Sequence record: PQ471516.1
Reading direction: 5' to 3' (one strand)
DNA from: Escherichia phage Turkey5
Length of the DNA stretch: 64,000 bases
The translations under genes and the position numbers were made by a program. Shown piece by piece: positions 3,011 through 4,080 of the stretch. Within the stretch, counting starts at the first letter, position 1. Each line of letters begins with the position of its first letter. The notes under the pieces are model-generated. The model was given only the letters and a program-made list of their open reading frames with translations, was not told the origin of the DNA and ran no database searches.

Positions 3011-3553
3011 ATGAAATTCTTTAAGAAGAAAGACGATTTAGATTGGTCTTCATATGTCCAAGAACGTAAGATTAATAAATGTATTTTTAAATTAATTACT
3101 AAAAGTATCTTACTCAAAGAAAGTATCACTACGGATCAAGACCGTAGAGATTTAATCAATTTAAAGTACAAAGTAAGTTCATTTTTCTTTTACAATCTAA
3201 TGAAAGAAATTGCAACGAGTACAGATCCTGAACGTTGGGATGTTGATGTTGACCGATATTACGGTGGGGACATTAGTTTCACTATTCGTGATAGAAAGAA
3301 GAATGTATCCATCAACGCTGATTATGATACGGCTGATAATGTTCAGTTTGATGATCCCAATTTACGAATAAAAGATGAAGAAATCAGAGTGAGTATTCGC
3401 AAAGATTTTGTTAAAACACATTTAGAAAGTCCAGAGAAATTCATTATGATTTACTTTGTTATGGAGTACGTTAGTGTTACAGAAAATCTAAAGAATTTAA
3501 GAAGACTACAAAATGAGCACGAGCTAAAACTATCAGTCAGAGATTGGTACTAG
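3011..3553 (+). CDS. hypothetical protein, cassette gene A
   Basis: ATG 3011 preceded by GGGAGG; shares N-terminal MxFFKK and a DRRxLIxxKYK...DPxxRW motif with gene B. Confidence 0.55.
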   Translation: MKFFKKKDDLDWSSYVQERKINKCIFKLITKSILLKESITTDQDRRDLINLKYKVSSFFFYNLMKEIATSTDPERWDVDVDRYYGGDISFTIRDRKKNVSINADYDTADNVQFDDPNLRIKDEEIRVSIRKDFVKTHLESPEKFIMIYFVMEYVSVTENLKNLRRLQNEHELKLSVRDWY

Positions 3554-3561
3554 GAGAGAAC

Positions 3562-4080
3562 ATGTTTTTCAAAAAAGACAAAGTGGAAAAAGAAGAGAAG
3601 AATTTAAACTTTCTTAATGACGTTATCCAAGTCCTTATGAAAAGTTATCAACTCAAAGATAAAGTACTGAATGATGACGACCGCCGATTGGTTATCGATA
3701 TTAAGTACAAATTGAGTAAACATCCTTTACTAACTCTAATCACAGAGATTGTTAAAGATCCACATGACAGCCGATGGAGATGGATTGAACAGTGTGCTTC
3801 CGTTTATTCCACTACTCGTTATGAATTACTTGACACAGTAACTGACGTTCAAGTGGGTGTGCGATGCTTTGATATAAAAAACGCAACACGACACAAAAAC
3901 ATCCGAAGTTCTGTTGATTTTAATAGTGATGTATTAGTAGAAGAAGAATCCATCTTTTTATTCTGTTTCTTGCACGGTTTGAATCAAATGTACACAACGA
4001 TTTCAGTACTGAACCAGCAGCAGAAAAATCTACAAAAACGTAATGAAATTAAGGATTTATATCAATGTTCAAAATCTTAA
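3562..4080 (+). CDS. hypothetical protein, cassette gene B (paralogue of A)
   Basis: ATG 3562 with AGGAGA upstream; motif DDDRRLVIDIKYKLS...DPHDSRW parallels gene A. Confidence 0.55.
   Translation: MFFKKDKVEKEEKNLNFLNDVIQVLMKSYQLKDKVLNDDDRRLVIDIKYKLSKHPLLTLITEIVKDPHDSRWRWIEQCASVYSTTRYELLDTVTDVQVGVRCFDIKNATRHKNIRSSVDFNSDVLVEEESIFLFCFLHGLNQMYTTISVLNQQQKNLQKRNEIKDLYQCSKS

Follow-up and report, generated by a model that had tools for sequence, protein, structure and literature searches.

Tandem paralogous genes in an Asteriusvirus genome

We analysed a 64,000-nucleotide (nt) stretch of Escherichia phage Turkey5 (sequence record PQ471516.1; the whole stretch is hereafter called the window) that carries a cassette of small genes, A, B and C, the first two of which had been picked out in an earlier note as diverged tandem duplicates of a kind typical of anti-defence or host-takeover factors. 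When positions 2500-6700 were searched by megablast, the sole near-identical record was vB_EcoM_JNE01 (Asteriusvirus, 355 kb), with 97.4% identity and 100% query coverage, and ~35 further Asteriusvirus genomes matched in the flanks only, at ~75% identity; judged by these matches, the window DNA is that of an Asteriusvirus jumbo coliphage. The coding sequences annotated in JNE01 coincide exactly with the coordinates of A and B, and every product is listed as “hypothetical protein”. The genes of the cassette, with protein lengths in amino acids (aa), are as follows:

3011..3553, + strand: gene A, 180 aa, beginning MKFFKKK, Shine-Dalgarno sequence GGGAGG; A/B-type family member
3562..4080, + strand: gene B, 172 aa, beginning MFFKKD, Shine-Dalgarno sequence AGGAGAG; A/B-type member, and the protein that was modelled
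4065..4565, + strand: gene C, 166 aa, C-type third paralogue, sharing 16 nt with the end of B

A and B have in common the signature of the DRR...KYK...S type that had been noticed earlier (DRRDLINLKYKVS in A, DRRLVIDIKYKLS in B). A DP..RW motif is also present in both, with a spacing that is not fixed as had been supposed but differs by 2 residues (DPERW in A, DPHDSRW in B), and the proposed common start MxFFKK holds for A (MKFFKKK) and not for B, which begins MFFKK. In BLASTP the two proteins match with 36 bits and E 5e-8 (35% identity across 52 residues), which places their similarity far above chance in the pairwise alignment that had been suggested as a check. Both give end-to-end matches to the same two PHROG profiles (phrog_18641, E 4e-20 for A and 4e-32 for B; phrog_7868, 6e-6 and 3e-8), and both align along their full length with orthologues of other phages. 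Tandem paralogy with strong divergence is therefore borne out by the BLASTP score and the common PHROG profiles: on sequence evidence A and B are true paralogues, and identity between the tandem genes falls to 24-29%.

Gene C had been overlooked in the earlier note, and its pairwise BLAST similarity to A and B is merely marginal. Its profile matches, in contrast to this, are to phrog_7868 with E 1e-20 and to phrog_18641 with E 5e-3, it aligns end to end with A and B, and comparison of an A/B-like with a C-like profile by hhalign gives a probability of 99% and E 3e-18 over 163 columns. Because of the phrog_7868 match, the end-to-end alignment and the hhalign score, we regard C as a third paralogue and the unit as a triplet instead of a pair; a search of the window with a hidden Markov model (HMM) built on the family turned up no fourth member. 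The PHROG collection holds phrog_18641, the best match of A and B, and phrog_7868, the best match of C, as separate unannotated families in the category “unknown function”, whereas all three proteins match both profiles over essentially their full length, and by this criterion the two families appear to be a single superfamily with members side by side at this locus. A, B and C thus belong to families catalogued before without an assigned function, and their novelty is modest. The conserved motif of the superfamily reads K-S-x2-L ... D-x2-R-[RK]-x2-I-x2-K-Y-x-L-S-K and is accompanied by a Tyr at most 5 residues from the C-terminus. In B numbering, K27, S28, D38, R41, K48 and Y167 are invariant in 15 Asteriusvirus sequences, and K48 and Y167 are invariant across 27 diverse family members.

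Predicted structure and protein properties

Structure prediction, also proposed as a check in the earlier note, was run on B with AlphaFold. With 7 sequences the model was unusable (predicted local distance difference test, pLDDT, 47.5), and it became confident only with a 27-sequence alignment of family members (pLDDT 89.5; predicted template-modelling score, pTM, 0.74). In the confident model the helices 4-25, 30-34, 38-52 and 55-65 bear the conserved motif, four strands occupy residues 72-118 and a long helix of 45 residues runs from 127 to 171, and B is thereby predicted to combine a conserved N-terminal helical module with a variable four-strand sheet and a C-terminal helix. A Foldseek search of the Protein Data Bank (PDB) with this model returned nothing at E<=0.001 (best E 0.99); the top match, RnlA-RnlB, offered a toxin-antitoxin lead that we dropped as insignificant (E 0.99, template-modelling score 0.24). 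The best fold matches in BFVD (E<=0.001) were uncharacterised proteins of Munch and fHe-Yen9-03/04, and no nucleic-acid-binding fold was detected in the fold searches with the B model.

Sequence-based annotation of A, B and C gave no PADLOC match and no meaningful Pfam match (none at E<=0.1), and a sequence-profile search of the PDB returned noise only (DOCK7, E 0.066; a SAVED-domain protein, E 0.4). The lone NCBIfam match, of A to ribosomal protein L10, is sub-threshold (E 0.027, 13.5 bits against a cutoff of 547) and was rejected. The three proteins are soluble and mildly basic (isoelectric point, pI, 7.5-9.4; net charge +1 to +6), and with such pI values none has the acidic DNA-mimic composition of the Ocr/ArdA type.

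A multi-copy family at one syntenic locus of Rak2-like phages

Word-indexed homologue searches are near-blind to this family, recovering 1, 6 and 3 proteins with B alone, a 15-sequence profile and a 27-sequence profile, respectively. When 1.84 billion representatives were scanned exhaustively with HMMER, 29 scored E<=1e-3; the majority are 150-197 aa long and matched by the profile end to end. Matches obtained by tblastn with the family proteins were confined to Rak2-like jumbo phages, namely Asteriusvirus, Alcyoneusvirus (Muenster), the Munch/7t3/fENko-Kae01 group, Mimasvirus (GAP32, CBB, XbC2), Eneladusvirus (fHe-Yen9-03/04, Serratia phage BF) and Erwinia jumbo phages without a genus call (pEa_SNUABM series, Kaldavass). 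The survey of copy number in related phages that the earlier note had recommended shows that each Rak2-like genus examined has two to four copies, in tandem or nearly so, at a single syntenic locus: two in Muenster, three in Asteriusvirus, the Munch group and XbC2, and four in GAP32 and fHe-Yen9-04. The gene order is kept in each of these genera and consists of ~900-aa tail-like genes, a terminator, the family copies, a D-like gene, an RlaP nucleotidyltransferase, small genes, spanins and HNH; in Mimasvirus and Eneladusvirus, Thg1-like, NrdA.1-like and N4-cytosine methyltransferase genes are interspersed among the family copies.

Scoring the copies of other genera against HMMs specific for Asteriusvirus A, B and C places Muenster gp236, Munch gp174, GAP32_148 and Yen9-04 g143 in the C-type lineage and Muenster gp235 and Munch gp172 in the A/B-type lineage, and by the same scores A and B are each other's nearest paralogues. 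Read in this way, the sequences date the split between the C type and the A/B type before the Rak2-like genera and the split between A and B after it. There has been no recent duplication here, since C-type and A/B-type copies are already found in Alcyoneusvirus, the Munch group, Mimasvirus and Eneladusvirus. In Salmonella phage SD-1_S14 (locus L007, 5443-6886; at 311 kb a shorter genome than its relatives) and in CMSTMSU (locus L005; flagged as an UNVERIFIED assembly), family genes carry truncations or frameshifts that probably reflect sequencing error rather than true pseudogenes.

A candidate early operon bounded by hairpins

The cassette lies at the head of an operon with the following elements around it:

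214-2940: tail/fibre-like gene F, 908 aa (~900), directly upstream of the cassette
2946..2967, + strand: intrinsic-terminator hairpin, 9-bp GC-rich stem followed by a T-run, folding energy (dG) -13.6 kcal/mol, z -6.4; ends the upstream tail-like gene
2957..2985, + strand: near-consensus sigma-70 promoter, TTGACG (-35, 2957-2962), 17 nt, TATACT (-10, 2980-2985)
4568..4966, + strand: gene D, 132 aa, acidic (pI 4.6), phrog_22376; an unrelated conserved operon partner
4963..5400, + strand: gene E, 145 aa; found at no examined Asteriusvirus locus other than those of the window and JNE01
5384..6625, + strand: RlaP-family (PF10127) Pol-beta nucleotidyltransferase, last gene of the operon
6630..6674, + strand: long hairpin closing the operon, dG -20.2 kcal/mol, z -5.7

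The -35 box of the promoter sits within the loop and 3′ arm of the terminator hairpin, and the two elements are conserved together. The hairpin is kept in 7 Asteriusvirus genomes, with two pairing-preserving changes in the stem of A4 (T.G to C-G; C-G to T-A), the -10 box is TATAAT in five of the seven aligned genomes, and the 70-nt spacer 5′ of A is the most conserved stretch of the region. Munch, GAP32, fHe-Yen9-04 and XbC2 show the same composite ahead of their first family copy, with the -35 box in or just past the hairpin and the -10 box 17 nt further downstream (a full 12/12 match in fHe-Yen9-04); in Muenster the promoter (TTGACA, 17 nt, TAAAAT) is separate and lies after the terminator. 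The study of CBB linked RpoD-like promoters with early genes and ATAAATA with late ones (PMC5259590), and by analogy 2957..2985 would be the early promoter of the cassette.

The distribution of ATAAATA in the window agrees with such a division. This motif, late-promoter-like, was not found upstream of A and occurs at 6670-6676, right after the closing hairpin and ahead of tail-fibre genes. It is strongly depleted in the window (8 copies against 24 +/- 4.5 expected), as is TATAAATA (0 against 6.9 expected), and the surviving ATAAATA copies lie mostly 5′ of large open reading frames (ORFs), at least one of them a tail-fibre gene (for example 6670-6676, 27141-27147, 30206-30212 and, on the minus strand, 46076-46082); this pattern agrees with a late promoter motif of the T4 kind that the rest of the genome avoids. 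From these sequence elements we infer that A-B-C-D-E-nucleotidyltransferase may constitute an early transcription unit of the host RNA polymerase, insulated on both sides from late tail genes.

Published virion proteomes of two related phages bear on the same point. The phAPEC6 orthologues of A, B and C are gp321c, gp320c and gp319c, and the list of 62 virion proteins of phAPEC6 includes the neighbours gp314c, gp315c and gp323c and lacks gp319c-321c, D and the nucleotidyltransferase. In CsCl-purified CBB virions (Table 4 of that study) the listed proteins pass from CBB_144 to CBB_169, with CBB_150, 153, 155 and 156 absent. Based on the promoter and these two proteomes, A, B and C are probably early and non-structural.

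Allelic types, recombination and selection

Ten Asteriusvirus genomes were compared, and three discrete types of the A/B/C block emerged, one in the window and JNE01, one in A4, and a “121Q type” in all others. DNA identity in the block is 88-100% within a type and 46-54% between types. At the protein level, A, B and C are 24-40% identical between types (that is, 60-75% different), compared with 60-68% for D, 74-87% for the nucleotidyltransferase and 50-82% for F. Full-length alignments of A, B and C with their Muenster counterparts give 21-31% identity, and the types are about as far apart from one another. Divergence is unevenly spread along the proteins: residues 20-70 form a conserved core in which the types are 44-48% identical, and the figure drops to 21-34% in the sheet and C-terminal helix.

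The block also appears to have moved between genomes. ph0011 combines an F gene that shares 95% DNA identity with F of A4 and a 121Q-type A/B/C set (~50% identical to the A4 set), and UE-S1 combines an F gene 78% identical to F of the window with, again, A/B/C of the 121Q type; these two combinations indicate that the type of F varies independently of the type of A/B/C. Synonymous divergence (dS) within the 121Q type is ~0.2 in A/B/C and ~1.2 in F and the nucleotidyltransferase of the same genomes, and such low dS in the block fits its spread by recombination. The left edge of the divergent block coincides with the conserved terminator-promoter element, which recalls the PeSL (promoter-early stem-loop) composites known from the borders of hyperplastic regions in T4-type phages, in which a stem-loop terminator is fused to a near-perfect sigma-70 promoter (TTGACA, 17 nt, TATAAT; PMC2839356; PMC4122927). 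The element of the window likewise borders a variable block of function-unknown genes that is exchanged as a module, but it is the one strict composite in the 64 kb, whereas PeSLs are multi-copy repeats. Given the mosaic pattern of the block, the terminator-promoter element may have a role in its recombination.

Diversifying selection, which the earlier note had invoked, is not supported at the level of whole genes. The gene-wide ratio of nonsynonymous to synonymous divergence (dN/dS) within the 121Q type is 0.20 for A, 0.19 for B, 0.10 for C and 0.05 for the nucleotidyltransferase, and between the window and JNE01 it is 0.19, 0.24, 0.06 and 0.02 in the same order. With values of 0.06-0.24 for A, B and C among close relatives, gene-wide positive selection is rejected; selection on the three genes is purifying, and more relaxed than on the nucleotidyltransferase.

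Candidate functions of the cassette

We propose that A, B and C are a three-member early non-virion family that works as a host-directed set with a common helical module, and we give this statement as a whole a probability of about 0.45. Its parts differ in strength: that the three form a real early, non-virion paralogue family is highly probable, and that they are host-directed or counter-defence factors is a tentative suggestion, less likely than not. On this proposal the host RNA polymerase would transcribe A, B and C early, and the proteins, as a host-directed set, would serve takeover or counter-defence from within the cytoplasm. The conserved helical module (KS..LK....D..RR..I..KY.LSK) would supply a common activity or partner site, and the variable sheet and C-terminal helix may set target specificity or hold the paralogues together in oligomers. 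That the copies work together, possibly as an oligomer, is suggested by the long terminal helix and by the upkeep of separate paralogue lineages. A more elaborate version, in which the long C-terminal helices bring A, B and C together in an early hetero-oligomer with a novel fold, specific to Rak2-like phages, and the complex would, together with RlaP and Thg1, counter or sense RNA-targeting or abortive-infection defences, with cassette alleles matched to host defence variants, strikes us as a long shot.

The anti-defence or host-takeover role put forward earlier agrees with the predicted timing of the cassette, its restriction to one lineage, the divergence of its alleles and its neighbourhood, and agrees poorly with its universal retention and purifying selection. 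Early genes of the T4 hyperplastic region encode small host-takeover and counter-defence proteins. The cassette resembles these genes in being small, lineage-restricted, fast-diverging, apparently early from a sigma-70 promoter and located beside an NrdC.11-like nucleotidyltransferase. It differs from them in that the searches linked the family neither by sequence nor by fold to a characterised T4 early protein, and in that the family is retained in every genus of the phage group examined, unlike most hyperplastic-region genes.

Several observations weigh against a host-directed or counter-defence role. Anti-defence genes are typically sporadic in distribution, whereas this family is universally present, in a fixed position and in stable orthology groups, across phages of Escherichia, Klebsiella, Yersinia, Erwinia and Xanthomonas, and such universal retention looks more like a core function than an accessory anti-defence gene. 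PADLOC and the fold searches revealed no match or similarity of A, B and C to known anti-defence sequences or structures, and the dN/dS values given above offer no sign of gene-wide positive selection. The early timing presumes that sigma-70-like promoters are early in this phage group, absence from virion lists is weak negative evidence, and publications on fENko-Kae01, phAPEC6, CBB and Sharanji offer neither functional nor transcript data on the family genes.

Two alternatives, an RNA-repair-partner role and a core regulatory role, are equally open beside the anti-defence idea; we consider either one unlikely when taken singly. In the first, A, B and C would be accessory, specificity or RNA-binding subunits of the RNA-repair and RNA-modification enzymes encoded in the operon (RlaP, and Thg1 in Mimasvirus and Eneladusvirus), for example recruiting different damaged tRNAs. 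Jumbo-phage RlaP and Thg1 are predicted to repair RNA ends (PMC7824862), the family always lies 5′ of the PF10127 nucleotidyltransferase in the same transcription unit, a Thg1-like gene is interleaved with the copies in GAP32, CBB, fHe-Yen9-04 and XbC2, and the mildly basic character of the proteins would suit such a role. However, homologues of RlaP occur widely, in 576 phage records that include T4 NrdC.11, the PVP-SE1 group and Lak phages, and the small family is found in Rak2-like phages only, which implies that the RlaP enzyme generally does not need it; the linkage may merely be inherited synteny, and the lack of a detectable nucleic-acid-binding fold speaks against RNA-binding subunits.

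In the second, the genes would perform a core regulatory or replication task of the phage, such as modification of the host RNA polymerase or the early-to-middle switch, and would not be conflict genes. The presence of the family in every Rak2-like genus examined, the stability of the C-type and A/B-type lineages, the purifying selection and the early-type promoter all agree with this. Core regulators usually evolve more slowly, however, and here identity within Asteriusvirus (24-40%) is hardly above that to Muenster (21-31%), and copy number varies from 2 to 4.

It is improbable, to a clearly greater degree, that the three proteins are chaperones, assembly factors or adaptors for the ~900-aa tail/fibre-like protein encoded just upstream (214-2940). 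Fibre chaperones commonly follow their fibre gene, and the family lies directly 3′ of a large tail-like gene in all genomes. A conserved terminator and a separate sigma-70 promoter, early-like and not late-like, nevertheless separate F from A, the types of F and of A/B/C assort independently, and in Muenster the upstream genes are tail fibres annotated toward SP6, phi92 and P1 proteins and the cassette is retained all the same. There is, in addition, no Pfam tail-assembly-chaperone match (E<=0.1), and the PHROG category is “unknown function”. We reject this reading because the operon is set apart from F and the two do not co-vary. Finally, a chance or compositional match between unrelated AT-rich small ORFs, to which the low identity of A and B outside the 52-residue core (14-21%) might point, has next to no likelihood, being refuted by the BLASTP score, the full-length matches to the same two PHROG profiles and the profile-profile E of 3e-18, and the fold model, moreover, gained confidence only once the family alignment was supplied.

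Rak2-like jumbo phages have been proposed for therapy against E. coli, Klebsiella and plant pathogens, and >80% of their genes have no known function. That the genes represent a lineage-specific family of hypothetical proteins was known already, as they are so annotated in GenBank, and by itself would be an ordinary result. The analysis unites two “unknown” PHROGs as a multi-copy family, very probably early and non-structural, with a predicted fold that has no solved relative and a place in an exchangeable module beside RNA-repair enzymes, and the locus is now a defined, testable candidate for host-range or counter-defence determinants in Rak2-like phages.

Neighbouring genes and further observations

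The nucleotidyltransferase that closes the operon matches PF10127 with 58.8 bits (gathering cutoff 23) and phrog_388 with E 8e-76. Its N-terminal 150-190 residues are related to T4 NrdC.11 (26% identity, E 2e-6), and its relatives in the 576 phage records are full-length in PVP-SE1-like phages and partial (60% of the query) in a Lak megaphage.

Gene D has a weak PADLOC match to SduA/DUF4263 (E 0.0015, 16.5 bits) that is probably noise. It is 63% identical to Muenster gp237, comparable to its identity with D of other Asteriusvirus phages (61-68%), and gene E is 44.5% identical to gp238 of the same Klebsiella phage, which occupies the same slot between D and the nucleotidyltransferase. The similarity of both genes to those of Muenster points to deep allelic lineages or to inter-genus exchange at the locus.

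Beyond the operon, a 42-aa ORF at 6715-6843 (+) before the tail-fibre gene is homologous to phAPEC6 gp315c and 121Q gp507. The phAPEC6 product (4.66 kDa) was detected in the virion by mass spectrometry with 69% coverage, and 6715-6843 is a true micro-protein gene, of a size that ORF-length filters would discard, and is unannotated in JNE01. The adjoining tail-fibre pair (6731-7342 and 7344-10133; region ~6700-10133), 3′ of the nucleotidyltransferase, is polymorphic in its presence: the window, JNE01, 121Q, PBECO4, A4, E9.1 and SD-1_S14 have it, and vB_Ec-M-J, Ecwhy_1, UE-S1 and ph0011 lack it, with an acyl-carrier-like gene coming directly next instead. On the other side of the cassette, the last ~35 residues of the 908-aa tail-like protein (..RFLTYRPSTTKRGSAIPSSTGVPSGTGTRWK; 2830-2940) are repeated at the end of the preceding gene (..RFSTYRPSTTQKGSSFPVSTGNPAQTGSIGW; 36-197), in what looks like a C-terminal module common to consecutive tail-like genes.

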